Assembly: GCF_003231495.1 (NCBI RefSeq)
Contig: NZ_PQWO01000005.1
Location: forward strand, 60,001 to 92,000
Length of the DNA: 32,000 bases
Direction: 5' to 3'
Source: Acaryochloris thomasi RCC1774
Lineage (GTDB): Bacteria > Cyanobacteriota > Cyanobacteriia > Thermosynechococcales > Thermosynechococcaceae
The notes beneath the pieces are model-generated. The model was not told where the DNA came from. It was given only the letters and a program-made list of their open reading frames with translations, and did not search any database. The translations under genes were made by a program, and so were the position numbers. Below are positions 1-29,857 of this stretch, piece by piece (within the stretch, counting starts at the first letter, position 1; each line of letters begins with the position of its first letter).

Positions 1-2718
1 GGTTTTGTCGTCCGCAGAATTACCTTCCCAGATCCGTCAGAGGGTGTTGGCTCGTCTGTTAGTGGAGCGGGAGACATTAACGGTGACGGATTTGACGATC
101 TGATTCTGGGGCCAGATAGTGGCATGTACAAATATGGAGAGACCAAAGTCTATGTCATATACGGAAGCAGTGAGAATACCAGCGGTAGCTTGGGCTTAGC
201 CGATCTCAATGGAAACAATGGCTTTATCATCGAGAGTGCCAACCCCAACAGCACTTCCATTAGACCCTCCAGTTTTGGCAGCGAATACAGTATTGAAACG
301 GGCACAGCGGACAGCAATGCCGGATTTTCGGTCAGTGGGCTAGGCGACATCAACGGAGATGGCATTGATGACTTCATTATTGGCGCACCCAGAAGACCGC
401 TCAAGATACCATTCAGTCCCCCTACCCCCGTCGGTTCAGGACAAGGTTACGTCGTCTTCGGTCGTTCTGAAGGCTTTAGCAAAAACTTCAGCCTAGCCGA
501 GCTTGATGGTGAGACAGGCTTTGTCATTGAAAGCGACACGACCGGAAGCCTCACCGGACAATCCGTCAGCAACGTTGGGGACTTTAACGGCGATGGATTA
601 GACGACATTATCATTGGAGCACCTGGCTTAGACCCTGCAGGAACTAGCTATCTAATCTTCGGCTCAGATAAGGGCTTCGATAAAAGCCTTGCGCTATCAG
701 ACTTAAATGGCAGTAATGGGTTCGCCCTATCTGGCAGCAGCATTGGTGATCAAACGGGGACTGCTGTCAGTGGAGCAGGCGATGTCAACGGTGATGGATT
801 TGATGATCTCATTGTTGCTGCCCCCAACGGCAGCAATGCAGCAGGCATTACCTACGTCCTTTTCGGTACTAATACGACGCCCAGAAGTATCAACGTCGAC
901 AGCTTAAATGGAAACAATGGTTTCGCAATCTTTGGAGAAGAAACATACGACATCTCAGGACTTTCTGTCAGTGACATTGATGACTTTAACGGCGATGGAT
1001 TTGATGACCTCATTATTGGTACAGGGAGTGGCACAAACGGTGTAGGAGTAAGCCACGTGATCTTTGGACAAGCTGACGGTTTTCCTGCAGCTTTGAACGT
1101 GAACGAAATCGACGGCAGGAATGGCTTTAGCATCGTCGGTGAAGAACGGACTGGCGCAGGCCGGTCTGTCAGCGGTGCAGGTGATATTAATGGTGATGGC
1201 TTAGGTGATGTTATTGTCGGCGCCCCCGATACCAATTATTTAGCTGGCGCTAGCTACGTTCTCTTCGGCCAACAAGACAGCGTCGAGCCAGCCGTAGATT
1301 TAGCGAATCTATCTCCCAGTCAGGGATTCTTGATCCCCGGTGATGAGAACTTCAGTCGTGGCTCAAATTCGTACGCTTACATTGGCGATGCTGTCAGTGG
1401 AGCAGGCGATATCAATGGGGATGGGATTGATGACTTGGTCATCGGTTCAAGGGGCGGCTTCATCATAGGGACCGGTTCTGCACAGAGCTATGTTGTCTTT
1501 GGCAACGCTCCGCCTGAGCTTGATCTAAATTCCAAGCAGGATGGTTTGAACTCTACCGCAACCTTTACACAAGGAGCCATTTCCCTTGCTAGACCAGGTA
1601 GCATAGCGGTCACAGATGCCAACACTTCCACTCTGAGAAGCGCAACGATCTCAATTACTAATCCTCTAGATAATGAATCAGAGATCCTAGCGGCTAACGT
1701 TAATGACACTGAGATTACGGCCACCTACGACAGTGCGACATCGACGCTGACCCTGACCGGGAAAGATACGCTTGAGAACTATCAGCGAGTTCTAGCAACC
1801 ATTACCTATAACAATACGGCTGATAGCCCTGACCCGACAGATCGCTCCATCCAATTTGTCATCAATGATGGTGCAGATTTTAGTAATGAAAGTGCGATGG
1901 CCGATGGCCGGTCGGAGACCATCGCAACGACAGCCATCACGTTCGAGTTACTTAACAGAATTGACGGCACAAGTGATCCCGATACGCTGTTCGGAAGCCG
2001 AGAAGCGGATCGAATTATTGGCTTCGGCGGCAATGACTTCATCTCTGGGCGTTCTGGCAACGATGTCTTAGCAGGCAGATCAGGAAACGATCAGATCTTT
2101 GGTAACAACGGCAATGATAGCCTCAACGGCAATCGGGGCAACGATTTGCTCAACGGCGGCAGCGGGGACGACCTCCTGAGAGCTGGACAAGGCAAAGATA
2201 AACTCTTCGGCAGTCGAGGAGACGATATTCTGCGGGGCAATCAGGGAAACGATATCCTCCTGGGCGGTTCGGGCAACGACAGCCTCAATGGCGGAAAGGG
2301 TCTTGACCTCTTATATGGCAGTAGCGGAGATGATTCCCTCAAGGGAGGCAGTGGGGGTGATCGACTGTTCGGCGGGGTTGGCGATGACACCTTGCGTGGC
2401 GGCAATGGCATCGACCTACTCCAGGGCAGTCAGGGTCATGACCGACTTGACGGCGGCTTCGGAAGCGACAGTCTCTTTGGCGGTGCGGGGAGTGATCAAT
2501 TTGTGCTGCGGGCAGGCGACGGCAACGACATTATTTTTGACTATCAAGACGACATTGATTCTTTTGCTCTGGATGGTCTAGATTTAGCCGATCTTGAGAT
2601 TCATCAAGGATTAGGTCAAACAACCGTTCGGGTCAGAGAGACACAAGAAACGTTGGCAACCTTGCTGAATATACAGGCATCGATAGTCGAAGACACAGAT
2701 TTTACTATCTCAACTTAA
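1..2718 (+). CDS. Giant FG-GAP propeller / RTX calcium-binding protein, paralog A (5' end outside window)
   Basis: Frame 1 is open from base 1. GFVVRRITFPDPSEGVGSSVSGAGDINGDGFDDLILG precedes the in-frame ATG at 124, so that Met is internal and the gene continues upstream. Contains seven FG-GAP-type blades (1-1509), a ~145-aa post-propeller module (1510-1944), 18 GGxGxDxLx nonapeptides (2026-2511) and a ~68-aa tail ending in TAA at 2716-2718. Confidence 0.9.
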   Translation, partial: GFVVRRITFPDPSEGVGSSVSGAGDINGDGFDDLILGPDSGMYKYGETKVYVIYGSSENTSGSLGLADLNGNNGFIIESANPNSTSIRPSSFGSEYSIETGTADSNAGFSVSGLGDINGDGIDDFIIGAPRRPLKIPFSPPTPVGSGQGYVVFGRSEGFSKNFSLAELDGETGFVIESDTTGSLTGQSVSNVGDFNGDGLDDIIIGAPGLDPAGTSYLIFGSDKGFDKSLALSDLNGSNGFALSGSSIGDQTGTAVSGAGDVNGDGFDDLIVAAPNGSNAAGITYVLFGTNTTPRSINVDSLNGNNGFAIFGEETYDISGLSVSDIDDFNGDGFDDLIIGTGSGTNGVGVSHVIFGQADGFPAALNVNEIDGRNGFSIVGEERTGAGRSVSGAGDINGDGLGDVIVGAPDTNYLAGASYVLFGQQDSVEPAVDLANLSPSQGFLIPGDENFSRGSNSYAYIGDAVSGAGDINGDGIDDLVIGSRGGFIIGTGSAQSYVVFGNAPPELDLNSKQDGLNSTATFTQGAISLARPGSIAVTDANTSTLRSATISITNPLDNESEILAANVNDTEITATYDSATSTLTLTGKDTLENYQRVLATITYNNTADSPDPTDRSIQFVINDGADFSNESAMADGRSETIATTAITFELLNRIDGTSDPDTLFGSREADRIIGFGGNDFISGRSGNDVLAGRSGNDQIFGNNGNDSLNGNRGNDLLNGGSGDDLLRAGQGKDKLFGSRGDDILRGNQGNDILLGGSGNDSLNGGKGLDLLYGSSGDDSLKGGSGGDRLFGGVGDDTLRGGNGIDLLQGSQGHDRLDGGFGSDSLFGGAGSDQFVLRAGDGNDIIFDYQDDIDSFALDGLDLADLEIHQGLGQTTVRVRETQETLATLLNIQASIVEDTDFTIST
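2026..2511 (+). repeat. RTX block of paralog A: 18 contiguous 27-nt (nonapeptide GGxGxDxLx) repeats
   Basis: GGNDFISGR SGNDVLAGR SGNDQIFGN ... FGSDSLFGG AGSDQFVLR. The register is unbroken for 18 x 9 residues. Confidence 0.9.
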
Positions 2719-2795
2719 AAGTCTTTTGCAAGCACAAAAGCTTTAGTTTTCACGACCCTCGCCCTAAACATTGAACTGCAATCCAGACAACAACC

Positions 2796-5700
2796 ATGGC
2801 TAACTCAATTCTCAAGCTCGAAGATCTCAACGGCAGTAACGGATTTGCCATTGTGGGCAACGGTGTTCCTTACAGCGGGTTGGCCATCGATGAAGTCGGG
2901 GACATCAATGGCGATGGACTCGATGACATCATTATCGGCAACCCTGCTGGTGGTGCAGATTCATTGGGAGAAGGCTATGTCATATTCGGGCGCTCTGATG
3001 GGTTTATCGATCGGCTTGATCTATCTAGCCTTGATGGCAGTAATGGGTTCATTATCAACGGTATTGCTGGACTTACCCGTGGCTTTGGTATTGGTTCTTT
3101 CGCCCGTGGCCTCGGAGACATCAATGTAGATGGAATCAGTGATGTAGCCATTGGTACATTTTCAGGTGATTCAAGATTTGTCATCTTCGGTCAGTCCGAA
3201 GCTTTCAGCGCCAGTATTGATCTGCAGCAGAGCCAAAACGCTTCTGTTCTTAACGTTGCAGGTTTAGTGAGCAGTGTGGGAGACATCAATAATGATGGCT
3301 TTAATGACTTCATTTTTGAAGGATCTGCCAACAATACAGTCAATATCATCTTCGGTAACGGTCAAGGTTTTGACGACTCCTTCGACGGTACGAACGTAGA
3401 CGGTACGAACGTAGACGGCACCAATGGCTTTGAACTGCAGGTGAGTGAGGAGATCTCCCTCATCCGAGATACAGGAGACATTGTTCAAGATGCAGGAGAC
3501 ATCAACGGCGACGGCATTAACGATCTCATTATCGGTCGTCCATCTAGACAAAATACAACAAGCACAAGCCACATTGTTTTCGGCAGCAGCCAAGGATTTG
3601 CAGCCAGTCTCAACGTTGCTAACCTAGACGGCAGTAACGGATTCACGCTTAATGGATCGGGAGACAGCGTTGCGGTCAGCGGCGTGGGTGATTTCAACGG
3701 AGACGGAGTTGACGACTTTGTGATCGGGGCACCGTTCGCCAGTCCCAGCAATACTGCTAGCGCAGGCCAAAGCTATCTTGTTTTTGGTGGCCAAGACTTT
3801 GAGGCCAATTTTGATCTGGCTGACTTAGATGGCACAAACGGTTTCGCTATCAACGGCATTGGCATCAGCGATCAAGCGGGTTATGCCGTTAGTGATGCAG
3901 GCGATATTAACGGCGATGGCTTTGATGACATCATCATCAGTGCCTCCCAAGTTCGCTCACCCGGCAACTACACGCCAACTTTTTCCTATGGCCCTGGTCA
4001 GAACTATGTCATCTTCGGGTCTAGCGGTGGTTTCCAAGATCAGCTGAATCTTGCAGATCTTGATGGCAGCAATGGTTTTTCTATTGAGGAGCCTGATCTC
4101 AACGGCAATTTTCAAAGCTCTTCTGTCAGTGGTGCAGGCGATATCAACGGCGACGGCATTGATGATCTGGTCATTGGCACTCCTGAAGACAGTACGAGCT
4201 ACGTGGTGTTTGGCAATACTGCACCAGAGCTCGATCTCAATGGCTCAGACGATGGCAATAATATTTCCGTCAACTTTACCGGCGGTCCTATTCGAGTGCT
4301 TGAGAGCGCCAGCATCTTAGACTCCAACACTTCTACGCTGGCAGGTATCACCGTCACGATTGCCAATCCCTTAGATGGTAATGCTGAAACGCTAGCAGTT
4401 GAAACAGGCGGGACGAGCATCACCACTGCATTTGATCCGACGATGGCCACCCTGACGCTCAGCGGTCAGGACACTCCCGCAGCTTACCAACAGGTTCTTG
4501 CCACGCTGACCTATAACAACACATCGGCTAGCCCCAATAGCACTGCGCGTCGGCTCCGTATTGTCGCTGACGATGGCGAGGCTCACAGCAACAAGGGCAG
4601 CATCGCCATTGCTTCAGTTGTTTTTCCGCCTGCAGGTGAATTGAATCGTTTGCCTGAGGCTGAGAGGGATGCGATCGCAACCCTAGAGAATATCCCTATA
4701 ACCCTCAACGTACTCGACAATGATCGCGATCTAAACGGTGATGCCCTAGAGCTTACGAACATCAACGTCAGCAATACTCGCGGCACCGTCACGGAGACCG
4801 GCAACGGCACCCTCAGGTATGACCCTAGTGGCGGATTTGATTTCCCGGCACCCGGTATTGAATTCACAGATCGGTTTGAATACACCGTCAGCGACGGCCA
4901 GGGCGGAACTGACACAGCAGAAGTCATCGTCACAGTCACGGGCACATTCGACACACCCTTTGAGCTAGCCGATCTAGACAGCAGTAGCGGCTTCACTATC
5001 GACGGTCTTCAGGCAGACGATCGCCTCGGCCGTGCCGTCAGCAATGCTGGCGATATTAATGGTGATGGCCTTGACGATCTTGCCTTCTTCTCGGGTGTCG
5101 AAGGCCTCATTGTTTTTGGTCAAGAGGCGGGCCAACCATCAGCGACGGATCTTACGGTGCTAGACGGTACGAACGGTTTCTCTCTTCGAAGTTCCTATGG
5201 CCCCAACGCCATCAGCAGCGCTGGCGATGTCAATGGCGATGGCTTCGATGATCTCATTATTAGCGAGGCAACCTACACCTACGAATCAGGCGGTCTTGGA
5301 ACCTATATCGTTTTCGGCAGCGATCAAGGCTTCAGCCCTAGGCTTGGGATTGAAGATCTAGACGGTACCAATGGTTTTGTCATCTCTAGGATCAGCAATG
5401 CCGGTGCAGACAGCGTTTCTGCCGATGGCATCGGCGACTTCAACGGGGATGGTATTGATGACATCGTGACTGGAGACAGCGGTTCAGGGAACGGCTACGT
5501 ATTGGGTTCCAGCACTGTTGTGTTTGGTACCACCAGTGGCTTTGACCCACGCATCGACCCTATAGCTCTTGATGGCAGTAATGGCTTTCAAATCACAAAC
5601 TTGATTTCTCCGACGGTGGGGGCTGCAGGTGACATCAACGGCGACGGCTTTGCCGATATTGTTGTTGGCGATACCCGCAGAGACAACTACGACAGTCAGA

Positions 5701-7544
5701 TTGGCAAAACATACGTTATTTTTGGAGGCCGTCGCGATTTTAACGCCAGTCTTGATACCTCTGAGCTAGACGGCACCAACGGCTTTGTTCTCGAAGGCGT
5801 CGTGCGAGGCGATCAAGCAGGGGGCGCAGTCAGTGGAACGGGAGATATCAATGGGGATGGCGTTGATGATCTGCTGATTAGCGCAACCGGTACTCGCTTT
5901 TTCGGCAACATCAATACGGGGCAAAGCTACATCGTTTTCGGCAACGCCAACGGATTCGACGCCACCGTTAGTCTTGCCGATCTCGATGGCACCAATGGTT
6001 TTACCCTTGCAGCCATTAATACCAATGCAGGCACATCGGTCAGTGGCGCTGGAGACATCAACGGCGATGGCTTAAACGACTTCATCGTTGGCGATACTGA
6101 CGACTATGACAGCGAAGATAGCGGCAGAGCCTACGTCGTTTTTGGTCAAACAGAAGGGTTCTCCCCCATACTCAACCTGACAGAGCTGAACGGTTTTAAC
6201 GGTTTCATCTTAAATGGCGTTGCGGCTAATGACGATGCGGGTAGCGCCATCAGTACCGCCGGAGACATCAATAACGACGGTATTGACGATCTGATCGTAG
6301 GGGCGCCCAATGCTGACCCAAACGGCAGAGATGATGCGGGAAGCAGCTACGTTGTCTACGGCAATGCCGCGCCTGAATTGGACCTTGATAATGGGCAGGC
6401 AGGCCGTGATGCAGCAATCACGTTCACGGGTGAAGCCGTCGCCATCAATCTAAATCTGACGGTTGCTGACGCCAATAGCCCCACCCTCGCAAAGGCAACC
6501 ATTGTTATTACTAACTCTCTAGATAGTGCATCTGAGAGCCTAGCCGCAGTCGTCAATGACACGAACATCACCGCAGTATACGACAGTGCCCGATCAACCT
6601 TGACGCTCACTGGAGAAGATACGGTCGAGAACTATCAGCAAGCCTTGCAGACCGTTACCTATAGCAACACCTCAGCAGCACCTGACACCACAGAGCGCAC
6701 CATTCAGTTTGTTCTGGACGATGGGTCTGGCTTTAGCAACAACAGCACGGTGGCAACCACGACAGTCTCCTTCGAGCTGCTAAATCAAGTTAACGGCACC
6801 GACAATGCGGACCGGCTGACGGGCACACCTGATGAAGATCGAATCCGCGGCTTTGGCGGCAATGACTTCATTCGCGGACGTTCGGGTAACGATGTACTAA
6901 TTGGCAACTCTGGCAAAGATCAAATATTTGGCAGTCGAGGCAACGACTCTCTCTACGGGAATCGGGGCAACGATCTTCTCAATGGCGGCAGCGGCAACGA
7001 CCTCCTGAGAGCTGGGCAAGGTAAAGACAAACTTTTTGGCAGTCGAGGGGACGATATTCTGCGGGGCAACGACGGGGACGATCTCCTCTTGGGTGGTGCG
7101 GGTAATGACCGCCTCAATGGTGGCAATGGTCTTGATCTATTAAACGGCAGCAACGGCGATGATTTCCTGAAGGGAGGCAAGGGTGATGATCGACTGTTCG
7201 GCGGGGTCGGCGATGACACGCTGCGCGGCGGCAATGGCGTAGACTTACTCCAGGGCGGCCAGGGCAATGACCGACTTGACAGTGGCTTTGGGGGCGACAG
7301 TCTATTTGGCGGTGCTGGAGCCGATCAGTTTGTGCTGCGGGCAGGCAATGGCAACAACACGATTTTTGACTATCAAGATGGCGTTGATTCTTTTGTGCTG
7401 GATGGTTTAGATTTTGCCGATCTTGAGATTCAGCAAGGATTAGGCCACACAACGATTCAGACCAAAAACGAGCATACTTTAGTCACCTTAATTGGCATTC
7501 AAGCGTCTGCAATTGAGGCCACAGATTTTATTGTGCTGGTCTGA
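2796..7544 (+). CDS. Giant double FG-GAP propeller / cadherin-like / RTX calcium-binding protein, paralog B (1582 aa)
   Basis: 4749-nt ORF with an ATG start. MANSILKLEDLNGSNGF enters blade 1 directly, with no hydrophobic leader. Propeller 1 is 2796-4220 (7 blades) and module 1 is 4221-4631. The cadherin/VCBS-like domain is 4632-4943 (LNVLDNDRDLNGDAL...FEYTVSDGQGGTDTAEVIVTVTG). Propeller 2 is 4944-6368 (7 blades), module 2 is 6369-6773, RTX is 6855-7340, followed by the C-terminal tail. Confidence 0.92.
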   Translation: MANSILKLEDLNGSNGFAIVGNGVPYSGLAIDEVGDINGDGLDDIIIGNPAGGADSLGEGYVIFGRSDGFIDRLDLSSLDGSNGFIINGIAGLTRGFGIGSFARGLGDINVDGISDVAIGTFSGDSRFVIFGQSEAFSASIDLQQSQNASVLNVAGLVSSVGDINNDGFNDFIFEGSANNTVNIIFGNGQGFDDSFDGTNVDGTNVDGTNGFELQVSEEISLIRDTGDIVQDAGDINGDGINDLIIGRPSRQNTTSTSHIVFGSSQGFAASLNVANLDGSNGFTLNGSGDSVAVSGVGDFNGDGVDDFVIGAPFASPSNTASAGQSYLVFGGQDFEANFDLADLDGTNGFAINGIGISDQAGYAVSDAGDINGDGFDDIIISASQVRSPGNYTPTFSYGPGQNYVIFGSSGGFQDQLNLADLDGSNGFSIEEPDLNGNFQSSSVSGAGDINGDGIDDLVIGTPEDSTSYVVFGNTAPELDLNGSDDGNNISVNFTGGPIRVLESASILDSNTSTLAGITVTIANPLDGNAETLAVETGGTSITTAFDPTMATLTLSGQDTPAAYQQVLATLTYNNTSASPNSTARRLRIVADDGEAHSNKGSIAIASVVFPPAGELNRLPEAERDAIATLENIPITLNVLDNDRDLNGDALELTNINVSNTRGTVTETGNGTLRYDPSGGFDFPAPGIEFTDRFEYTVSDGQGGTDTAEVIVTVTGTFDTPFELADLDSSSGFTIDGLQADDRLGRAVSNAGDINGDGLDDLAFFSGVEGLIVFGQEAGQPSATDLTVLDGTNGFSLRSSYGPNAISSAGDVNGDGFDDLIISEATYTYESGGLGTYIVFGSDQGFSPRLGIEDLDGTNGFVISRISNAGADSVSADGIGDFNGDGIDDIVTGDSGSGNGYVLGSSTVVFGTTSGFDPRIDPIALDGSNGFQITNLISPTVGAAGDINGDGFADIVVGDTRRDNYDSQIGKTYVIFGGRRDFNASLDTSELDGTNGFVLEGVVRGDQAGGAVSGTGDINGDGVDDLLISATGTRFFGNINTGQSYIVFGNANGFDATVSLADLDGTNGFTLAAINTNAGTSVSGAGDINGDGLNDFIVGDTDDYDSEDSGRAYVVFGQTEGFSPILNLTELNGFNGFILNGVAANDDAGSAISTAGDINNDGIDDLIVGAPNADPNGRDDAGSSYVVYGNAAPELDLDNGQAGRDAAITFTGEAVAINLNLTVADANSPTLAKATIVITNSLDSASESLAAVVNDTNITAVYDSARSTLTLTGEDTVENYQQALQTVTYSNTSAAPDTTERTIQFVLDDGSGFSNNSTVATTTVSFELLNQVNGTDNADRLTGTPDEDRIRGFGGNDFIRGRSGNDVLIGNSGKDQIFGSRGNDSLYGNRGNDLLNGGSGNDLLRAGQGKDKLFGSRGDDILRGNDGDDLLLGGAGNDRLNGGNGLDLLNGSNGDDFLKGGKGDDRLFGGVGDDTLRGGNGVDLLQGGQGNDRLDSGFGGDSLFGGAGADQFVLRAGNGNNTIFDYQDGVDSFVLDGLDFADLEIQQGLGHTTIQTKNEHTLVTLIGIQASAIEATDFIVLV
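3384..3425 (+). repeat. Perfect in-frame 15-bp tandem duplication (gacggtacgaacgta x2, then a diverged partial third unit) inside paralog B
   Basis: Bases 3384-3398 and 3399-3413 are identical, followed by gacggcaccaat. The translation is DGTNV DGTNV DGTN at the entry of blade 4. Confidence 0.9.
4671..4678. repeat. HIP1 palindrome GCGATCGC
   Basis: Exact match, followed by AA (GCGATCGCAA). Confidence 0.9.
6855..7340 (+). repeat. RTX block of paralog B: 18 contiguous nonapeptide repeats
   Basis: GGNDFIRGR SGNDVLIGN ... FGGDSLFGG AGADQFVLR. Same count and register as A. Confidence 0.9.
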
Positions 7545-7637
7545 GTACTGCCTAAACTGATCACCAGCACTTTTCATACTGCTTAAAATCAGCAGTGAAC
7601 GACTGATTCACCCAAATATTTGATAGCGAGCATAGAG

Positions 7638-10600
7638 ATGGACAGCATCATCATTCAAGCCTCTGACCTTGATGGCAGCAATGGTTTCATCATCAGCGGT
7701 ATCAATACAAACGACCAGACTGGTTTCTCAGTTAGTGCCGCAGGCGATTTCAACGGTGATGGCATTGGTGATCTGATCATTGGAGCACCCGCAGCCAACG
7801 CTCAAAATAGCCTCGGTAAAAGCTATGTTGTGTTCGGACAATCAACGGGCTTCAATGCCAGCCTGGATTTGGCTACATTGGATGGCAGCAACGGTTTCGT
7901 CCTCAATGGCGTTGAAGCAGGGGACTATTCTGGTTTCGCAGTTAGCAGTGCAGACGTTAATGGCGATGGTTTCGATGACGTCATTATTGGTTCATCGGGG
8001 CCATACTTTAATGCGCCCGGTGCCAAAACCCATGTTGTCTTTGGTCAAGCTGGCCCATTCTCTGCAAATGTTGACCTGTCGGATCTTGATGGCAGTAACG
8101 GTTTTCTCTTCAATGGCAACGTCGTCGCCAACTTCCCCGGTACGTCTGTCAGAGGTGCAGGAGATATTAATGGAGATGGCCTAGAGGATGTGATTATTGG
8201 AGCTTCCGGCGCCAATGATGATGTGGGAGAAAGCTATGTCATTTTTGGTCAGACTGAAGCATTCTCGGCGAGCTTTGGGGTTTCAGATCTCAATGGCAGC
8301 AATGGTTTTGTCATCAATGGCACTACCACACGTGGCAACTTTGGCTGGTCAGTCAGCGGTGCGGGTGACGTCAATGGAGACGGTTTTGACGATTTGATTA
8401 TCGGCGCGATCAGTGGTGGACGAGGTGGTCGGGGACGGAGTCATATTGTGTTTGGCCAAGCAGCAGCATTTGCACCAACGTTTGATATCACAAGCTTGAA
8501 TGGTACGAACGGCTTTGTGTTGACAGATGGCGGCAGTTTTTCCGTCAGCAGTGCTGGCGATATCAACAATGATGGTTTTGATGATTTCGTGGTTGGTGCC
8601 AGAGATGACGGGGAAGATGGCCGGAGTTACGTCATATTTGGTGATGCTGAAATTGGAGCATCGGGTAGTCTTTCTCTCACTGCCCTCAACGGCAGTAATG
8701 GTTTTGCAATCAATGGCTCTAGCACCTTCAGTGGGGAATCAGGATATTCGGTCAGTGGGATCGGTGACGTCAATGGGGATGGCATAGATGACCTTCTGAT
8801 TGGTGATCCCTCGGCTGACCCGGACAATGGCAGCCTGTTGGGAATACTCGAAGGGCAGAGTTACGTCGTCTTTGGTCGGACTGATGGATTCTCAGCAAGT
8901 TTAGATCTAGCTGCTCTAAGCGGTGACGAGGGGTTTGTCATTGACGGTACTGATGCCTATGACAATCTTGGGTTTTCGGTGAGTGGTGCTGGAGACGTGA
9001 ATGGCGACGGCATTAATGACATTATTGTGGGTGCGCCAGGCGCTGATGTCAGCAATGGTCAAGGTAGTGAAGTTGGCGAAGGTTATGTGATTTTTGGCAA
9101 TGCTGCGCCGCAGCTTGATCTCAACGGTGGCTCAACAGGAATCAACTTTGAAGCAGTCTTTGAAGGAAATGCGGTTGCGATCGCAAACCACTTCAACTTA
9201 AGTCTCACCGACCCCAATAATACTTCCCTCGTAGGAGCAACCATCGAGATCACAAACGCCATTAATGGTGCAGCAGAAGGACTGGCTGTTGATACCCAAG
9301 GGACAAATATCACCGCTAGCTACGACGCAGAAACTGGGACGCTAACGCTAACAGGGGAAGATACCGTCACCCAATACCAGCAGGCCTTGCGGACCCTGAC
9401 CTATAACAACAGCGTTGCCAATGCAAACACCACCGATCGATTGATTGAAGTTACCGTGGATGATGGCGGGGCTTTTAGCAATGTAAGTGCGATCGCAACT
9501 GCAACCGTCACCTTTGCACCAGACCTCCCCAACCTCCTGCCTAATGCAACCGACGACAACATCACAACCGCCAATAGTGGCCCGATCACCATTGACCTGC
9601 TGGCAAATGATAGCGATCCCAACGCAGATGCAATCAAGGTGGTTGAGATTGACACCTCCAATACCCGAGGAGCAGTCAGCCTCAATGACGAAGGTACAGT
9701 AACCTACAATCCCCCACCTGCATTTGCCGCTATACCACCCGGAATTAGTCTCACAGATAGCTTTGGCTATACCATCGAAGACGATTTGGGGGGCCAAAGC
9801 ACTGCAACGGCCACCCTCACTGTTGCCGGCAGCACCATTCCATCAACCCTCGATCTTGCAAACCTCAACGGCAATAATGGCTTCACAATTAACGGTGTTA
9901 GTGCCGAAGATTATACAGGTCACTCTGTCAGCAGTGCCGGTGACATCAACGGTGACGGGTTCGACGACGTCATCATTGGAGAAAGTGAGTTTAAGCGAGG
10001 CTACAGCGATAGATTTCGTTCAGGCAAAAGCTATGTCGTTTTTGGCAATCAGCAAACCTTTGAACCCGCCTTAGACTTATCAAACCTTGATGGCAGCAAC
10101 GGATTCGTGCTGGATGGTATCGCAGTCGGGCCGCGCGGCTTAGCCGTCAGTGATGCCGGCGACATCAACGGTGACGGACTCGATGATTTACTCATTGGGG
10201 CACCGAACGCAGGCCCTAATCCTGGTAGTGATGGTGCCGCCTTTTCTGGACAGGCCTATGTCGTGTTTGGCACCACTGAAGGGTTTGCCCCTAACGTAGA
10301 TCTACCTGGCCTCAATGGTCAAAATGGTTTCATCATCAACAGTATGGGTGATTATGATCTATTGGGGACCTCCGTTAGCAATGCTGGCGATGTGAATGGG
10401 GATGGGATAGACGATCTGATTGTTGGCCCCTTGCGGTCAGATCAGTACTACTCGGGCGAGAGCTATGTGATATTCGGACGGACCGAGGGATTTAGCTCAA
10501 CGCTTAGCCTTGCTGATCTCAACGGCAATAACGGCTTTATCATCAATAGCAATGGCCGTGAACTCTATGACGCCTCAGTGAGTAGCGCCAGAGATATTAA

Positions 10601-12617
10601 CGGCGATGGAATTGATGATGTCGTCATTGGTGCCCCCAACGGAGATCCGAATGATCTCGTAACATCTAACGGCATTGGACAAAGCTTTGTCGTGTTTGGA
10701 AGCAGCGAGGATTTTAGCACCCGTCTTAATGTTGACGACCTCAACGGCAGTAATGGTTTTGTTCTCAATGGTTTTGCCGTCAATGGCGAAGTCGGGACTG
10801 CCGTGGGGCGCGCTGGAGATATCAACGGTGACGGGATTGAGGATTTAGCAATTGGCGCGCCAGAAACTGTCTTTCTAGACGGCAGCAGACCCAATAGAGC
10901 CGGTCAGACCTACATTATATTTGGGACAACAGCGGGATTCGCATCAGACCTCAGCTTGGCAGACCTAGACGGCAGCAATGGTTTCACGATTAATGGAACC
11001 AATAGCGGTGACATGCTGGGCACCTCTGTTAGCAGTGCCGGAGATATCAACGGCGATGGGATTGAGGATCTCTTACTTGGCGCACCCAATGGCGGCACCC
11101 GTGCCAATAGCTATGGCTATGGTCGCCGCGCCGCGAGTGAGCCAGGTACAAGTTATGTCATCTTTGGAGATGCTGCAGGGTTTGATGCCAGCCTTGATGT
11201 CGCTGACTTAGACGGCAGCAACGGCTTAAAAATCCCCGGCATTGCTGCAGGAGACGGTGCCGGTGAATCAGTCAGCAGCGCCGGAGATATTGATGGTGAC
11301 GGACTGGACGATTTAATCATCGGGGCACCGTTTGCGGGTCCATCAATCACCCGAACGATCTCAACCTATGACGGCAGTACGTTCGAGACGACCTACAGCA
11401 ATAGCCGTGGCGAAAGTTATGTCATCTTTGGCAATGTCGCACCGGAACTAGATTTAAATGGATCTGAGTCTGGCATAGATTTTGTGACCACTTTTGATGG
11501 CAGTAGGGCCGCATCTTTGGGTCGTGACCTCAGCTTGTCCGACAACAAAAATCGCTTGATTGGCGCAACAGTGTTCATTACCAACCCTGTAGACAGCGAA
11601 GCAGAAGTTCTGGCAGCTCAAGTCGAGGGCACAAATATCTCCGCTACATACGCTGCTGACTCAGGTATCTTGACCCTCAGTGGAGAAGATACGATTGAGA
11701 ACTACCGGCAGGTCCTACAAACCGTTACCTACAGCAACACATCAAATAATCCTGACACCACAGATCGCACGATTCAATTCGTTGTGAATGATGGATCACA
11801 CTTCAACAATTTCAGCACTGTCGCTACCGCCACAATTACCTTTGAGTCACTCAATCAGATTGACGGCACAAATACTAATGATCAGCTGGTTGGGACGCGT
11901 GACGCTGATCGAATTATTGGCTTCGGCGGCAATGACTTCATCACCGGACGCTCGGGCAATGACAGGTTAGCAGGGCGCTCCGGAAACGATCGGGTCTTTG
12001 GGGAGCAAGGCAATGACATCCTCAACGGCAATCGGGGTGATGACTTGTTGAATGGCGGCAGCGGGAACGATCTCCTCAGAGCCGGCAAAGGTAAGGATAA
12101 GCTCTTCGGCAGCCGAGGAGACGATATTCTCCAAGGCCATGACGGGGACGATTTTCTCAGTGGTGGCTTGGGCAATGATAGTCTCAATGGCGGCAGCGGT
12201 CTCGATCTGTTGAGTGGCGGCAGCGGCGATGATTTCCTCAAAGGGTTCAAGGGTGATGATCGGCTGTTTGGTGGGGTCGGCGACGATACGCTGCGCGGCG
12301 GCAATGGCGTAGACCTACTCCAGGGCGGGCAGGGTAATGACCGGCTTGACGGTGGCTTCGGAGACGACAGCCTATTTGGCGGTGCAGGTGTCGATCAGTT
12401 CGTGCTGCGGGCAGGGGACGGTAAAGACACCATTTTTGACTATCAAGATGGCATTGATTCTTTAGGGCTAGATGGTCTAGATTTTACTGATCTTGAAATT
12501 CTTCAAGGAGCGGGACAGACAACGATTCAGATCCAAGAGACCCAAAAAACTTTGGCAATTTTGCAGAACGTACAGGCATCAATTATCGAAGACACTGATT
12601 TTACTGTTCTGACTTGA
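7638..12617 (+). CDS. Giant double FG-GAP propeller / cadherin-like / RTX calcium-binding protein, paralog C (~1659 aa)
   Basis: The ORF track starts at TTG 7620. ATG 7638 (MDSIIIQASDLDGSNGF) leaves exactly 9 residues before the DL(D/N)G motif of blade 1, as in B and D, so it is preferred. Propeller 1 is 7638-9104, module 1 is 9105-9515, cadherin/VCBS-like is 9516-9830, propeller 2 is 9831-11438, module 2 is 11439-11843 and RTX is 11925-12410. Confidence 0.9.
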   Translation: MDSIIIQASDLDGSNGFIISGINTNDQTGFSVSAAGDFNGDGIGDLIIGAPAANAQNSLGKSYVVFGQSTGFNASLDLATLDGSNGFVLNGVEAGDYSGFAVSSADVNGDGFDDVIIGSSGPYFNAPGAKTHVVFGQAGPFSANVDLSDLDGSNGFLFNGNVVANFPGTSVRGAGDINGDGLEDVIIGASGANDDVGESYVIFGQTEAFSASFGVSDLNGSNGFVINGTTTRGNFGWSVSGAGDVNGDGFDDLIIGAISGGRGGRGRSHIVFGQAAAFAPTFDITSLNGTNGFVLTDGGSFSVSSAGDINNDGFDDFVVGARDDGEDGRSYVIFGDAEIGASGSLSLTALNGSNGFAINGSSTFSGESGYSVSGIGDVNGDGIDDLLIGDPSADPDNGSLLGILEGQSYVVFGRTDGFSASLDLAALSGDEGFVIDGTDAYDNLGFSVSGAGDVNGDGINDIIVGAPGADVSNGQGSEVGEGYVIFGNAAPQLDLNGGSTGINFEAVFEGNAVAIANHFNLSLTDPNNTSLVGATIEITNAINGAAEGLAVDTQGTNITASYDAETGTLTLTGEDTVTQYQQALRTLTYNNSVANANTTDRLIEVTVDDGGAFSNVSAIATATVTFAPDLPNLLPNATDDNITTANSGPITIDLLANDSDPNADAIKVVEIDTSNTRGAVSLNDEGTVTYNPPPAFAAIPPGISLTDSFGYTIEDDLGGQSTATATLTVAGSTIPSTLDLANLNGNNGFTINGVSAEDYTGHSVSSAGDINGDGFDDVIIGESEFKRGYSDRFRSGKSYVVFGNQQTFEPALDLSNLDGSNGFVLDGIAVGPRGLAVSDAGDINGDGLDDLLIGAPNAGPNPGSDGAAFSGQAYVVFGTTEGFAPNVDLPGLNGQNGFIINSMGDYDLLGTSVSNAGDVNGDGIDDLIVGPLRSDQYYSGESYVIFGRTEGFSSTLSLADLNGNNGFIINSNGRELYDASVSSARDINGDGIDDVVIGAPNGDPNDLVTSNGIGQSFVVFGSSEDFSTRLNVDDLNGSNGFVLNGFAVNGEVGTAVGRAGDINGDGIEDLAIGAPETVFLDGSRPNRAGQTYIIFGTTAGFASDLSLADLDGSNGFTINGTNSGDMLGTSVSSAGDINGDGIEDLLLGAPNGGTRANSYGYGRRAASEPGTSYVIFGDAAGFDASLDVADLDGSNGLKIPGIAAGDGAGESVSSAGDIDGDGLDDLIIGAPFAGPSITRTISTYDGSTFETTYSNSRGESYVIFGNVAPELDLNGSESGIDFVTTFDGSRAASLGRDLSLSDNKNRLIGATVFITNPVDSEAEVLAAQVEGTNISATYAADSGILTLSGEDTIENYRQVLQTVTYSNTSNNPDTTDRTIQFVVNDGSHFNNFSTVATATITFESLNQIDGTNTNDQLVGTRDADRIIGFGGNDFITGRSGNDRLAGRSGNDRVFGEQGNDILNGNRGDDLLNGGSGNDLLRAGKGKDKLFGSRGDDILQGHDGDDFLSGGLGNDSLNGGSGLDLLSGGSGDDFLKGFKGDDRLFGGVGDDTLRGGNGVDLLQGGQGNDRLDGGFGDDSLFGGAGVDQFVLRAGDGKDTIFDYQDGIDSLGLDGLDFTDLEILQGAGQTTIQIQETQKTLAILQNVQASIIEDTDFTVLT
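9177..9184. repeat. HIP1 palindrome GCGATCGC
   Basis: Exact match (ttGCGATCGCaa). Confidence 0.9.
9489..9496. repeat. HIP1 palindrome GCGATCGC
   Basis: Exact match. Confidence 0.9.
11925..12410 (+). repeat. RTX block of paralog C: 18 contiguous nonapeptide repeats
   Basis: GGNDFITGR SGNDRLAGR ... FGDDSLFGG AGVDQFVLR. Same count and register. Confidence 0.9.
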
Positions 12618-12694
12618 GAAATATTTAAAATCACTCAATCGATTGTTTTCATTACTGTCCCCTCAGGCCTCTAACTTCAACCCAGATAACAGCT

Positions 12695-15600
12695 ATGGCT
12701 AATTCAACCTTCAACCTCTCAGACCTCAACGGCAATAACGGATTCTCACTCAATAGTCGTGGCCCCAGCTCCTTTGATCAGAGAACACTCTCGGTTAGCG
12801 GTGCAGGAGATATTAACGGAGACGGAATCGACGATCTAATTATTGGAAATGCCAACGTTGGCGACCCATATGATGGCGGAGAAAGCTACGTTGTCTTTGG
12901 CCGCTCTGATGGCTTCAGTGCTAGCGTTAGTCCAGCTAGTTTAGACGGCAGTAATGGTTTTATTGTTCGAGGGGATGAACGAGGAGATCAGGCTGGCTCT
13001 ACTGTCAGTGGCGTAGGCGACATCAATAGCGACGGTATTGATGACGTCCTGATTGGCGTACCCGGTCGTGATACCAGCTACGTTCTCTTCGGTCAACGTG
13101 GCAGCTTTGACGCCAGCATCAGCCTGTCGCAGATTGATGGAACAAACGGCTTTGTCATTGAAGGTAGCGCTTTCCTAGACAGTGTTGGTGACGTCAATAA
13201 TGATGGCGTTGATGACTTAATTGTTCGGGATACATCTAACAGCACAAACTTTGTGATATTCGGAAATCGTCAGGGGTTTAGCACATCCTTTGATGTGACG
13301 ACCCTCAACGCCAATGATGGTTTCGCTGTGCAGGGAGAAGATATCCGCACCCTCTCAGTGAGCGATGCTGGAGACGTCAACGGAGATGGCATTGACGATC
13401 TCATTATTGGCACAAGTCGTACCCGCAATTCTGTCCCTGCAGAAGAAAGTCACGTCATTTTCGGGAGTGGTCAAGGATTTGATGAAACGCTTCGCCTCGA
13501 AGACTTAGATGGCAGCAACGGATTCACTATTAACGGGATTGACGCCTTTGATAGCGCTGGCTATTCGGTGAGTGGGGCAGGCGATTTTAACGGTGACGGC
13601 ATTGACGATCTCATTATCGGTGCGCCGAGGGCTAATCCCAACAACACTGCAGCAGCAGGTGAGAGCTATCTTGTTTTGGGCAGCAATCAGGGATTTGAGG
13701 CAGATTTTGATCTTGCAAACCTTGATGGCACAAACGGTTTCGTCATTAGTAGCGCTAGCATCGCTGACTCTTCAGGTACATCTGTTAGTAGCGCTGGCGA
13801 TATCAACGGTGATGGGTTCGACGACCTTTTAATCGGCGCTCCTCAAGTTCGGTCGCCAGACAACTATCTGACCTTTGGCTACGGCCCAGGTGTAAGCTAC
13901 GTCGTCTTTGGCTCTGGGGCTCCATTTAAAGCAGAGCTTGATCTTGCCGAGCTTGACGGCAGCAACGGTTTTTCAATTCTGGGCGTTGCGCCGACCAATG
14001 CTAAATATTCTTCTGTTAATCAGGCTGGAGATATCAACGGTGATGGCATTGATGATCTCGCCATTGGTGTGCCCTACAAAGACAGGGGCACAGGCTATGT
14101 CGTCTTTGGCAATATTGCTCCAGAGGTAGATCTCAATGGTTCAGAGGATGGGCGTGATATTGCGGTTAACTTCTCTGGTGGTCCTGCTCAAGTTTTTGAA
14201 GATACAACCATTGTCTTATCCGATCCAAATTCTCCTGTACTGACAGGCGTCACCGTTAGCATTGCCAACCTTCTCGATGGTGATGCAGAGGTACTCTCTG
14301 TAGATGCCGGTGGAACCAATATCAGCGCTGACTTTGATCCTACTCTTGGCATCCTCACGCTCAGCGGTAGCGAGACTCAAGATGCCTATCAACAGGTTCT
14401 GGCAACGCTCACCTACAACAATACGGCGATCAATCCAAATGAGACGGCTCGACGGCTGCGAGTGGTGGCAGACGATGGCGAAGCACATAGCAATACAGGG
14501 AATGCTGCGATTGTCTCCGTTGTTTTTCCTCCGGGTGAGCCTAACCTGTCTCCTGAGGCGACGGATGACACGGTCATAACCTTAGAAAATTCCCCCATCA
14601 CCTTCAACGTTTTCGATAACGATAGCGATGCAAATAGCGATGCGTTAACGCTTGTGGGTGTTGATGTTAGCGGTACCCGTGGGTCAGTCATTGATCAGGG
14701 TAACGGTACCCTCACCTATGATCCCAGCGGTGCGTTCGATTTTCCTGCGCCCGGTGTTACATTCACCGATCGCTTTGAGTACACGGTCAGTGATGGTCAA
14801 GGGGGACTGGATACAGCGGCAGTAACGGTAACGGTTAGGGGAGGATCCACCGCCACTTTGGAGCTTTCTAGCTTAAATGGCCGCAATGGCTTTGTGATCA
14901 ATGGCCTACAGGAGGGCGATCTTCTAGGCAGTGCCGTTAGCGGTGCTGGCGATATCAACGGAGATGGAATTGACGATCTAGCTGTCAGTCTTCAAGGTCA
15001 GTCAGGGAATGAAAGCTACATCATCTTTGGTCAAGAATCAGAATTATTCGAAACCTTCGATCTAGCGACGCTTGATGGCAACAATGGTTTCTCTTTTTCA
15101 GGCACCTCGTCCGGTCGCTTTAATCCTTCCATTGGCAGTGCTGGAGACATCAACGGGGATGGCTTCGACGATCTGGTTATCGGTGATCAGAATGCAGATT
15201 TCGGGAATGACGCATTTTACTATCCTCGAACAGGTGCAGCCTATATCGTTTTTGGCAGTGATCAGGGTTTCAATGCCAGTCTTGAAGTAAGTGATCTTAA
15301 TGGCGCTAACGGTTTTATTATTCCTGGGTTTAAAGAGCCTGGTGCGATAGGAGGCTCTGTCAGTGGAGGAGATTTCAATGGTGATGGCATAGATGATCTG
15401 ATTATCAGAGGTCCAGGAGATATTGAATCTGATTTCAGGGGCGGTTTTCGACTAGGGGAAAGCTACGTCGTATTTGGTCAATTAGATGGCTTTGACTCCA
15501 GCTTTGACCTCACGACCCTTGATGGTACCAATGGTTTTCTAATTGCAGGCCTAGAAGATCCAATGGAGGTATCCACAAGCGATATTAACGGAGACGGTTT

Positions 15601-17497
15601 TTCTGACATCATTATTGGTGATACTCGGCGTCCTTACTACGGAAGTAAGACAGGCAGAGCATACGTTGTCTTTGGCGATGGGAATGCCTTCAATGCCAGC
15701 GTCGACGTTGCTGATTTAGATGGCTCTAATGGCTTCGTTGTTGAAGGCTTGTTCCGCGGTGATCAAACAGGGTTCTCAGTTAGTGGCACCGAAGATATCA
15801 ACGGAGACGGCATTGATGATTTGATTGTGGGTGCTATTGGCAGCCCCAATACTGGACAGAGCTATGTTGTCTTTGGCAACACTGGCGGGTTTGATGCTAG
15901 CTTTGACCTCGCGGATCTTGATGGTACCAATGGATTTGTCATTGCAGGTATCAATCGTGGTGATTCTGCTAGTGTCTCTGTTAGTGGGGCGGGTGACGTC
16001 AACGGCGACGGTCTCAGCGACCTGATTATTGGAGCGAGTCGAGCCGATTCAAATGGCAACGAAGACAGCGGTGAGGCTTATTTTGTCTTTGGACAAGCAG
16101 AAGGATTTGCGTCGACCCTCAATCTTGGAGATCTAAATGGTCTCAATGGCGTTGTCTTAAATGGTGTTGCAGCTGGCGATTTGACAGGCCGCTCAGTCAG
16201 TGGCGCTGGAGATATCAACAATGACGGCATTGATGATGTCCTGGTGAGCGCGCCAGAGGCGGATTCGAATGGTAACAATGCGGGTGCCAGTTATGTTGTG
16301 TATGGCAATGCTGCGCCAGAGCTAGATCTCAATAGCGAGCAAGCAGGCAACAGCTTTACCACCACTTTTATGGGTGAATCGGTCTCAATCGCTAGCAGCG
16401 ATAGTCTCACAATTGCAGATGCTAACGACGCAACGCTTGCAGGAGCCGTCATTGCGCTTACCAATCCGCTAGATAATGAGGCAGAAGTCCTGACAGCTGT
16501 TGTCGATGGTACAAACATCACGGCTAGTTATGACAGTACAAGCTCAACGTTGACGCTTGATGGCGAAGATACGACGGGGAACTATCAGCGGGTACTACGC
16601 ACGGTTACGTACGACAACTCCGCAAATCAGCCCAGCCTTGACGATCGTATTGTTCAGTTTGTGCTCGACGATGGGGCAGCGTTCAGCAATACCAGCGCAG
16701 TCGCCACGACAACGGTTTCATTCGAGCGATTCAATCGGATTGACGGTACAAATGATGCAGATCGACTTGTGGGCACCCAAGAAGCAGACAGAATTATCGG
16801 CTTGGGCGGCAATGATTTCATCTCTGGGCGTTCTGGAGATGATTCTCTAGCGGGCAAAGCTGGAAATGATCAAATATTTGGCGGTCAGGGCAATGACTTC
16901 CTCAATGGCAATCGGGGTGACGACTTCCTCAATGGCGGCAGCGGAGACGATCTCTTGAGAGCCGGAAAAGGTAGAGATGCACTCTTCGGCAATCAGGGCA
17001 ACGATATCCTGCGAGGTAATGAAGGGGACGATATCCTTAATGGTGGTTCAGGCAATGACAGCCTCAATGGCGGCAGTGGCTCGGATTTATTGAGTGGCGG
17101 CAGCGGCGATGATTTTCTTAAAGGGTTCAAGGGTGACGACCAACTGTTCGGCGGAGTCGGCAACGATACGCTGCGCGGCGGCAATGGTATAGACCTACTT
17201 CAGGGCAGTCAGGGCAATGACAGACTTGACGGCGGTTTCGGAGGCGACAGTCTCTTTGGCGGTGCTGGGGCTGATCAGTTTGTGCTGCGGATAGGCAACG
17301 GCAACGACACCGTTTTTGATTATCGAGATGGCATTGATTCTCTAGTGCTGGATGGTCTAGAGTTTGCTGATCTTGAGATTCTCCAAGGTCGTGGACGATC
17401 CACAATCCAGGTTGCATCGACAGAGGAAGCCCTGGCAACGCTGGTGGGTATCCAAGCCAGCAGTGTTGATCCAACAGATTTTATGTCCTTGACCTAG
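12695..17497 (+). CDS. Giant double FG-GAP propeller / cadherin-like / RTX calcium-binding protein, paralog D (1600 aa)
   Basis: 4803-nt ORF with an ATG start (MANSTFNLSDLNGNNGF) and no leader peptide. Propeller 1 is 12695-14116, module 1 is 14117-14533, cadherin/VCBS-like is 14534-14842, propeller 2 is 14843-16312, module 2 is 16313-16723 and RTX is 16805-17290. Colinear with B along its whole length. Confidence 0.92.
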   Translation: MANSTFNLSDLNGNNGFSLNSRGPSSFDQRTLSVSGAGDINGDGIDDLIIGNANVGDPYDGGESYVVFGRSDGFSASVSPASLDGSNGFIVRGDERGDQAGSTVSGVGDINSDGIDDVLIGVPGRDTSYVLFGQRGSFDASISLSQIDGTNGFVIEGSAFLDSVGDVNNDGVDDLIVRDTSNSTNFVIFGNRQGFSTSFDVTTLNANDGFAVQGEDIRTLSVSDAGDVNGDGIDDLIIGTSRTRNSVPAEESHVIFGSGQGFDETLRLEDLDGSNGFTINGIDAFDSAGYSVSGAGDFNGDGIDDLIIGAPRANPNNTAAAGESYLVLGSNQGFEADFDLANLDGTNGFVISSASIADSSGTSVSSAGDINGDGFDDLLIGAPQVRSPDNYLTFGYGPGVSYVVFGSGAPFKAELDLAELDGSNGFSILGVAPTNAKYSSVNQAGDINGDGIDDLAIGVPYKDRGTGYVVFGNIAPEVDLNGSEDGRDIAVNFSGGPAQVFEDTTIVLSDPNSPVLTGVTVSIANLLDGDAEVLSVDAGGTNISADFDPTLGILTLSGSETQDAYQQVLATLTYNNTAINPNETARRLRVVADDGEAHSNTGNAAIVSVVFPPGEPNLSPEATDDTVITLENSPITFNVFDNDSDANSDALTLVGVDVSGTRGSVIDQGNGTLTYDPSGAFDFPAPGVTFTDRFEYTVSDGQGGLDTAAVTVTVRGGSTATLELSSLNGRNGFVINGLQEGDLLGSAVSGAGDINGDGIDDLAVSLQGQSGNESYIIFGQESELFETFDLATLDGNNGFSFSGTSSGRFNPSIGSAGDINGDGFDDLVIGDQNADFGNDAFYYPRTGAAYIVFGSDQGFNASLEVSDLNGANGFIIPGFKEPGAIGGSVSGGDFNGDGIDDLIIRGPGDIESDFRGGFRLGESYVVFGQLDGFDSSFDLTTLDGTNGFLIAGLEDPMEVSTSDINGDGFSDIIIGDTRRPYYGSKTGRAYVVFGDGNAFNASVDVADLDGSNGFVVEGLFRGDQTGFSVSGTEDINGDGIDDLIVGAIGSPNTGQSYVVFGNTGGFDASFDLADLDGTNGFVIAGINRGDSASVSVSGAGDVNGDGLSDLIIGASRADSNGNEDSGEAYFVFGQAEGFASTLNLGDLNGLNGVVLNGVAAGDLTGRSVSGAGDINNDGIDDVLVSAPEADSNGNNAGASYVVYGNAAPELDLNSEQAGNSFTTTFMGESVSIASSDSLTIADANDATLAGAVIALTNPLDNEAEVLTAVVDGTNITASYDSTSSTLTLDGEDTTGNYQRVLRTVTYDNSANQPSLDDRIVQFVLDDGAAFSNTSAVATTTVSFERFNRIDGTNDADRLVGTQEADRIIGLGGNDFISGRSGDDSLAGKAGNDQIFGGQGNDFLNGNRGDDFLNGGSGDDLLRAGKGRDALFGNQGNDILRGNEGDDILNGGSGNDSLNGGSGSDLLSGGSGDDFLKGFKGDDQLFGGVGNDTLRGGNGIDLLQGSQGNDRLDGGFGGDSLFGGAGADQFVLRIGNGNDTVFDYRDGIDSLVLDGLEFADLEILQGRGRSTIQVASTEEALATLVGIQASSVDPTDFMSLT
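16805..17290 (+). repeat. RTX block of paralog D: 18 contiguous nonapeptide repeats
   Basis: GGNDFISGR SGDDSLAGK ... FGGDSLFGG AGADQFVLR. Same count and register. Confidence 0.9.
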
Positions 17498-17502
17498 CCA
17501 AC

Positions 17503-19731: not shown

Positions 19732-19845
19732 AATGCGTCTTTTAAACGACAGATTAAAAATAGAGAAATCAGCATCACAAGACCTTGGCCCTATGATGCT
19801 GAACATTGATCAAAGCAACTGTCTCATCGGAGACATATTGAGACG

Positions 19846-21465: not shown

Positions 21466-21587
21466 GGACTCGTCTCCTGTTCCAAAAAAAATTCAGTTTA
21501 TACAACAGCCGATCTAGCTCCCATAGATGGCTGAGGATTTCTTTCAACAAACCGTAGGGGTAGAGCTTCCCTGGATTCAGGCTCTCT

Positions 21588-23537: not shown

Positions 23538-23621
23538 AGCGGGGCACTCCCTAAAGACAGTCGAATGAAGATTTAATCTGATGGCCCACGGCTGCACAGG
23601 TATAAAAACTCATTAGAAGTC

Positions 23622-23663: not shown

Positions 23664-23790
23664 CAAATGTTAAGCTTTTATGAAGAACACGCGATATTTC
23701 TATGCAAGATCGACATGCAAAAATCGCATTGTTTCTCTAGTTGAGTGCATATAAGAGATAGAGAAGTTGGTCCCTGACGCAAGCCACGAT

Positions 23791-29850: not shown

Positions 29851-29857
29851 ACCGATA

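Follow-up and report, generated by a model that had tools for sequence, protein, structure and literature searches.

The 32-kb window analysed here (the whole stretch of 32,000 nucleotides (nt) at positions 60,001 to 92,000 of contig NZ_PQWO01000005.1 of the marine cyanobacterium Acaryochloris thomasi RCC1774) opens with a head-to-tail array of four same-strand open reading frames (ORFs), genes A to D, whose products combine FG-GAP propellers with a C-terminal RTX block. The ORF calls assign 54.7% of the window to the array, with spacers of exactly 77, 93 and 77 nt (Table 1), in line with the approximately 55% and the identical spacers of an earlier annotation of the bare letters (the sequence-only reading). 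For gene C, the start at ATG 7638 agrees with the length of the NCBI protein P0008 (1659 amino acids), with an in-frame TTG ahead of it at 7620. In NCBI and UniRef the four genes bear the name ‘Leukotoxin’, and the database proteins P0121, P0005, P0008 and P0001 are identical to the window proteins. We here argue, at a probability of roughly 0.68, that A to D leave the cell through a type I secretion system (T1SS) as Ca2+-dependent exoproteins, probably with a matrix or adhesion role.

Genes B, C and D encode one common order of domains: a seven-blade FG-GAP propeller, a module of ~140 amino acids, a cadherin-like domain, a second propeller, a second module, an RTX block and a C-terminal tail. 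Translations, Pfam matches and motif counts all bear out this colinear plan, which the sequence-only reading had proposed together with a profile check of its domains. That check gave strongly significant Pfam matches to FG-GAP (E values of 1e-64 to 1e-87, with 10-14 matched stretches) and HemolysinCabind (1e-27 to 1e-30), and placed a Big_9/Cadherin_5/Cadherin_4 domain at approximately residues 617-730 of B, C and D. By motif count there are 7 blades with a Ca2+ loop in A and 14 each in C and D, that is, 7 per propeller; B has 13 by regular expression and one more read by eye. The RTX block consists in every protein of exactly 18 GGxGxDxUx-type nonapeptides with an unbroken 9-residue register, followed by a conserved tail of 69-70 residues that is common to other cyanobacterial RTX proteins, for example P0033 and P0012. 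At the other end, blade 1 begins at approximately residue 10 and the N-terminus runs directly into the propeller. No hydrophobic N-terminal leader is present in A to D (Kyte-Doolittle maximum over 10 residues of 1.12 or less within the first 45 residues), and only 0-1 of the first 10 residues are Lys or Arg, which upholds the earlier claim that a Sec or Tat leader is absent. Nor is there a transmembrane-like segment anywhere in the four proteins (maximum over 19 residues of 1.13-1.53). The composition is acidic, with 14-15% Asp+Glu versus approximately 4% Lys+Arg, and entirely free of Cys.

Gene A is a shorter variant of this plan. The sequence-only reading had described four ~1600-residue paralogs, the first of them cut by the window edge inside its second propeller. 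This is wrong for A (for B to D see the lengths in Table 1): a protein search with the part inside the window found P0121 as the complete protein (100% identity), which has only 918 residues and one propeller. It starts MITVSLSNLNGENGF, base 1 of the window is codon 14 and the gene begins 13 codons left of the window. The start is real, because the ortholog P0122 (911 residues, 73% identical) shares the same N-terminus yet has a different gene 37 nt upstream. With a protein of this length starting just left of the window, the array therefore consists of one single-unit gene (propeller, module, RTX block and tail) followed by three double-unit genes, and gene A is a natural half-size form of B, C and D. 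The unit of propeller and module occurs once, twice or three times in relatives and is thus a modular super-repeat.

The predicted structures relate this unit to integrins. An AlphaFold2 model of full-length gene A (m5a544d950513) has a mean predicted local distance difference test (pLDDT) score of 72, with blades mostly at 80-90 and the RTX region at 85-94; the propeller is modelled as 7 × 4 strands and the RTX region as a regular pattern of short strands. In a Foldseek search, the top 50 PDB matches of this model were all integrin alpha chains (best E value 1e-15), with alignments of approximately 750 columns on headpieces (propeller plus thigh) of approximately 600 residues. The seven copies of the module (one in A, two each in B, C and D) align at 61% mean column identity. 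Their sequence gave nothing significant against PDB and Pfam, the only Pfam hit being a sub-threshold CLSTN_C. Modelled alone (gene D copy, m9d864aa86c13, 42-sequence alignment), the module is predicted as a β-sandwich with one short helix at a pLDDT of 92.5. Even its best fold matches in PDB are weak, with E values of approximately 1e-3 and template modelling scores of approximately 0.5 (approximately 2e-3 and 0.47-0.54 for integrin legs), and include a B4GALNT1 domain, integrin alphaV, a cohesin-like module and PrgB Ig domains. Since the top matches of the whole model are integrins only and span propeller and thigh, the module would sit where the thigh domain sits, and its predicted fold is compatible with this; the correspondence is suggestive, not proven. 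A profile search of 1.84 billion representatives found the module in 13,683 clusters, 9,295 of them at E ≤ 1e-10, with up to 44 copies per protein in some giant proteins, and on these counts it is a common adhesin-type repeat that has no curated Pfam or NCBIfam family.

From the architecture, folds, composition, synteny and divergence rates we infer export, folding order, location and a binding role with its ligands as follows. The acidic, Cys-free chains would stay unfolded in the low-Ca2+ cytosol. Their C-terminal tail and 18-repeat RTX block would be recognised by an ATP-binding cassette (ABC) transporter, a HlyD-type adaptor and a TolC-type channel encoded elsewhere, probably just upstream, beyond a DUF4915 gene that is expected there from relatives (see below). 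The chain would leave the cell C-terminus first. In seawater Ca2+ the RTX β-roll would fold first and then each unit resembling an integrin alpha headpiece, with its seven-blade propeller, a Ca2+ loop in every blade and the β-sandwich module behind it; B to D would carry one cadherin-like domain in addition. Full release is probable because blade 1 at approximately residue 10 leaves no room for a LapA-type retention plug. The released proteins would then probably bind the fibrous sheath, polysaccharide or other surfaces through their propeller and cadherin-like faces.

Several observations are consistent with this reading. The RTX block, the tail, the lack of a leader or membrane segment, the acidic Cys-free composition and the Ca2+-loop propellers all fit a family of Ca2+-dependent secreted or surface proteins, which is how the sequence-only reading had interpreted the array. 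T1SS-type ABC and HlyD genes adjoin a related pair of FG-GAP/RTX genes at locus L001 and one such gene at L033. Experiments on Nostoc punctiforme and Leptolyngbya boryana have detected FG-GAP repeat proteins extracellularly or in outer-membrane vesicles (PMC5702739, PMC9003413, PMC9620832). By abundance, the N. punctiforme protein ranks within the top 10% of the exoproteins (PMC5702739), and that of L. boryana is recovered from extracellular vesicles together with TolC and porins (PMC9003413). The detected proteins, Npun_R6586 and LBDG_07530, are likened to B, C and D by their FG-GAP annotation, not by the double propeller-module-RTX plan, and the Leptolyngbya protein is only 80 kDa; the N. 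punctiforme relatives P0109 and P0150 carry the same Pfam set as the window proteins. A. thomasi cells are covered with a fibrous sheath and are non-motile (PMC6002478).

Other points weigh against it. Within the window there is no set of genes recognisable as a T1SS; a partial HlyD-family gene at the right edge is the sole candidate. That gene is closest to adaptors of the resistance-nodulation-division (RND) type (94.4 bits versus a cutoff of 94.9). It falls well short of the T1SS HlyD cutoff and hence can be neither assigned to a T1SS nor linked to the array. The DUF4915 and T1SS genes left of the window are probable from relatives, a prediction and not something seen in A. thomasi. Most of the DUF4915/FG-GAP loci that we opened are without an adjacent ABC or HlyD gene. 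Finally, RCC1774 grows in culture as plankton, mostly as single cells (PMC6002478), and this speaks against a strong adhesion phenotype.

The relatives point to a recurrent neighbour, the DUF4915 (TIGR03032) gene. At L080, the closest relative of the array, it lies 37 nt upstream of the gene A ortholog, which is followed by a D-like gene. At L001, which among the cyanobacterial loci of the genome collection comes closest, one strand reads ABC (cyclic nucleotide monophosphate (cNMP)-binding, C39 and ABC domains), HlyD, DUF4915, FG-GAP and FG-GAP/RTX; at L033 an FG-GAP/RTX gene is followed by ABC and HlyD. DUF4915 stands directly upstream of an FG-GAP(+cadherin)+RTX gene at five further loci (L082, L083, L085, L086 and L087) and adjoins an FG-GAP/RTX gene in divergent orientation at L017. 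In every DUF4915 locus opened an FG-GAP-type gene adjoins it, and at least 12 further DUF4915 matches stand on contigs of the same lengths as those of FG-GAP matches. The converse fails, as most FG-GAP loci are without DUF4915. The protein has no signal peptide and no PDB relative, and a literature search for TIGR03032/DUF4915 found no paper. These loci may represent an FG-GAP/RTX export cassette in which DUF4915 would be a dedicated cytoplasmic partner, for example a modifying enzyme or secretion chaperone, by analogy with HlyC for RTX toxins, and which a cNMP-regulated T1SS ABC transporter and HlyD may sometimes precede. That both parts hold together, the cassette with its DUF4915 partner and an extracellular counterpart of the integrin alpha headpiece (propeller plus thigh-like β-sandwich), is a tentative proposal, which we rate as possible rather than probable. 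If true, the array would be a multi-substrate version of this cassette, and its DUF4915 gene would lie directly beyond the left window edge.

Bacterial integrin-type FG-GAP propellers are among the nearest known counterparts; they were reportedly noted by May and Ponting in 1999. The proteins surveyed by Chouhan et al. 2011 (PMC3192720) resemble A to D in their seven blades, in the Dx[DN]xDG Ca2+ loops in all of them, in occasional tandem pairs and in their abundance in cyanobacteria. However, no recognisable thigh or calf domains were reported for them and a cytoplasmic role was assumed, whereas A to D have a β-sandwich of ~140 residues at the thigh position after each propeller, plus an RTX export block. 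Compared with integrin alpha subunits, A to D have one β-sandwich per propeller, a weak leg match and no transmembrane segment; they are headpiece-like, not integrins. The giant RTX adhesins LapA, SiiE and MpIBP, as well as BapP of Pseudoalteromonas tunicata, share the T1SS logic and the Ca2+-rigidified β-sandwich or cadherin-like domains and act in surface attachment, and BapP also begins with a β-propeller (PMC12153261). Its propeller has five blades versus seven FG-GAP blades in A to D, and unlike LapA, SiiE and MpIBP, A to D have neither an N-terminal retention module nor a long extender array, only one or two modules and, in B to D, one cadherin-like domain. The cyanobacterial T1SS RTX exoproteins Sll1951/HLP, SwmA and oscillin are alike in their C-terminal Gly/Asp nonapeptides, lack of a signal peptide and acidic Cys-free composition, and those that are characterised are located at the surface or in a motility layer (PMC3034196). 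They differ by description, as they are not described as FG-GAP propeller proteins, and A. thomasi is non-motile.

This last likeness carries the strongest rival, in which A to D would be self-assembling S-layer or fibrous-sheath subunits that build up lattices or fibrils in the manner of Sll1951, SwmA or oscillin, and not ligand-binding adhesins. A review (PMC3034196) lists acidity and lack of Cys for S-layer proteins, which include several RTX proteins, and A to D share all three traits; A. thomasi has a fibrous sheath, and several paralogs could co-assemble. Against this, the best fold matches are integrin headpieces, while a match to a known S-layer protein was neither sought nor seen, and fast divergence with changing gene content is unusual for a lattice that needs self-contacts. 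The idea also overlaps with export as matrix or adhesion proteins, given that the same export route is assumed, and as a separate explanation we consider it rather unlikely.

The divergence itself is pronounced. At full length, identity is 62% between B and D and 51-52% between C and either of them. Compared with their counterparts in relatives, the array genes reach 52-73% identity, versus 87% for the adjacent narB and 89% for nrtP, and the gene order at L080 differs, with the A-like gene followed by a D-like and not a B-like gene. This combination of fast divergence and an A-like gene next to a D-like gene indicates that the array turns over quickly, and strengthens the earlier idea of functional diversification. 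The RTX block is conserved far more than the whole proteins, at 77-86% amino-acid identity among paralogs versus 51-62%. Where residues are identical, the same codon is used in 62% of columns in the RTX blocks of all four genes versus 38% in the propellers, and for glycine in 59% versus 30%. Recent gene conversion was considered and rejected on the grounds that the longest DNA tract common to array copies is only 36 nt; the codon likeness fits an export block homogenised long ago or in part, or a constraint acting on the nucleotide sequence. An assembly artefact was also rejected, given that the copies are only 51-62% identical and that the arrangement recurs in independent metagenome assemblies. 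We propose that the array evolves by duplication, loss or gain of domains and fast divergence of the binding parts, with the RTX export block kept alike.

The same pattern could be expected if A to D were variable surface or decoy proteins that mask or change the cell surface against phages and grazers, with the array as a reservoir of variants: the genes diverge faster than their flanks and change order at L080, and the paralogs drift apart around a conserved export block. However, neither switching elements nor invertible repeats are present, identical tracts between the copies reach 36 nt at most, no mobile or phage genes lie near the array within the window, and rapid divergence is expected of any surface protein. 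This explanation is thus improbable.

Some FG-GAP-type propellers are polysaccharide lyases. A to D could instead be secreted carbohydrate-active or carbohydrate-binding proteins, with lyase-like or lectin-like propellers acting on sheath or algal polysaccharide. In one relative, at L087, a C-type lectin domain is joined to FG-GAP, and carbohydrate can be a ligand of bacterial cadherin-like domains, for which PMC12153261 cites CabC/CabD of Saccharophagus. No catalytic family in Pfam or NCBIfam matches, however, and the fold matches are integrins, not lyases; we consider this a little more doubtful still than a decoy function. A cytoplasmic location, as once suggested for bacterial integrin-type propellers, would explain the missing N-terminal signal peptide. 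The source paper (PMC3192720) left RTX and T1SS signals out of account, though, and 18 RTX repeats with at least 7-14 Ca2+ loops need extracellular Ca2+ levels; relatives have adjacent T1SS genes, and cyanobacterial FG-GAP repeat proteins are found outside cells. We regard this location as highly improbable.

That A to D are pore-forming RTX leukotoxins, as the NCBI/UniRef name and matches to the NCBIfam RTX_toxin and EhxA models would have it, is effectively refuted: the matches cover only the RTX repeats (121-154 bits versus a cutoff of 1000, and 75-118 versus 2000), there is no hydrophobic pore-forming region (maximum hydropathy 1.53), the remainder of each protein is propellers and β-sandwiches, and no HlyC-type acyltransferase gene lies in the window. 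On the same evidence, the absence of a pore-forming domain, the toxin scores far below cutoff and the missing acyltransferase gene nearby, the name ‘Leukotoxin’ is a misnomer.

On the 3′ side of gene D, the convergent nitrate assimilation cluster narB-nrtP-nirA is followed by a HEAT-repeat protein, a CheB-CheR-PAS-kinase fusion and two response regulators (Table 1). Just 5 nt separate the gene D (+) and narB (-) stop codons (17495-17505); the two units converge there with no space left for terminators. NirA has 669 residues, with a C-terminal 2Fe-2S ferredoxin domain. The fusion protein (CheB-CheR-PAS-HisKA-HATPase, 1521 residues, + strand) is encoded in the region 25285-30873. At L081 an RTX gene and a D-like gene of 1624 residues are followed by convergent narB, nrtP and nirA, an order as in A. 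thomasi. Promoter-like and terminator-like sites across positions 1-18000 were not enriched over shuffled sequence, and scans for Rfam families and tRNAs found none. The A-B and C-D spacers are weakly similar, barely above shuffled sequence, and we claim no conserved regulatory element in them.

Table 1 Features of the array and its surroundings in window coordinates; the last eight lines give positions in the respective related loci.
Feature	Position	Strand	Remark
Gene A	1..2718	+	cut at codon 14; full protein 918 aa (amino acids), P0121
Gene A propeller	~1-1506	+	single, 7-blade FG-GAP
Gene A module	1507-1950	+	
Gene A RTX nonapeptides	2020-2505	+	18
Gene A tail	2506-2715	+	70 aa, then stop
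A-B spacer	2719..2795	+	77 nt
Gene B	2796..7544	+	1582 aa, P0005
Gene B propeller 1	2796-4217	+	
Gene B module 1	4218-4631	+	
Gene B cadherin-like/Big_9 domain	4644-4940	+	
Gene B propeller 2	4959-6365	+	
Gene B module 2	6366-6779	+	
Gene B RTX repeats	6849-7334	+	18
Gene B tail	7335-7541	+	
B-C spacer	7545..7637	+	93 nt; 75 nt if gene C starts at in-frame TTG 7620
Gene C	7638..12617	+	1659 aa, P0008
Gene C propeller 1	7638-9101	+	
Gene C module 1	9102-9515	+	
Gene C cadherin-like domain	9531-9827	+	
Gene C propeller 2	9843-11435	+	
Gene C module 2	11436-11849	+	
Gene C RTX repeats	11919-12404	+	18
Gene C tail	12405-12614	+	
C-D spacer	12618..12694	+	77 nt
Gene D	12695..17497	+	1600 aa, P0001
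Gene D propeller 1	12695-14113	+	
Gene D module 1	14114-14527	+	
Gene D cadherin-like domain	14543-14836	+	
Gene D propeller 2	14849-16309	+	
Gene D module 2	16310-16723	+	
Gene D RTX repeats	16799-17284	+	18
Gene D tail	17285-17494	+	
Nitrate assimilation cluster	17503-23597	-	narB, major facilitator superfamily nitrate/nitrite permease (nrtP), nirA
HEAT/PBS-lyase repeat protein	23767-24927		
Receiver-only response regulators	29858-30334 and 30433-30873	-	two
HlyD-family membrane-fusion gene	31066-32000	+	5′ part, runs off right edge
DUF4915/TIGR03032 gene	L080:1-183		
DUF4915/TIGR03032 gene	L001:6210-7301		
DUF4915/TIGR03032 gene	L082:833-1915		
DUF4915/TIGR03032 gene	L083:10001-11095		
DUF4915/TIGR03032 gene	L085:8939-10000		
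DUF4915/TIGR03032 gene	L086:10001-11104		
DUF4915/TIGR03032 gene	L087:2768-3898		
DUF4915/TIGR03032 gene	L017:8639-9667		

The sequence-only reading could name no characterised member with this exact architecture. The architecture is not a rare one: more than 6,900 proteins match the gene D product at E ≤ 1e-20, and many of these homologs have an identical set of Pfam domains, in Nostoc, Coleofasciculus, Symploca, Synechococcus elongatus, Nitrosomonas, Sulfitobacter and others. RTX proteins are especially abundant in cyanobacteria, with 28 in A. marina and roles that are mostly unknown (PMC3034196). The array is an ordinary addition to a large known class, with a function that is predicted only. 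There is some novelty, confined to the DUF4915 partnership, which lies outside the window, and to the thigh-like module.

The analysis corrects a misleading ‘Leukotoxin’ annotation and places the array in a class of cyanobacterial exoproteins that is very large yet neglected by experiment; RTX specialists will find nothing surprising here. Two leads follow for the family: the uncharacterised DUF4915 as a consistent neighbour of FG-GAP/RTX genes, and a widespread, uncurated β-sandwich of ~140 residues that, together with the propeller, appears to mimic an integrin headpiece. For A. thomasi itself, A to D are candidate protein components of the fibrous sheath.

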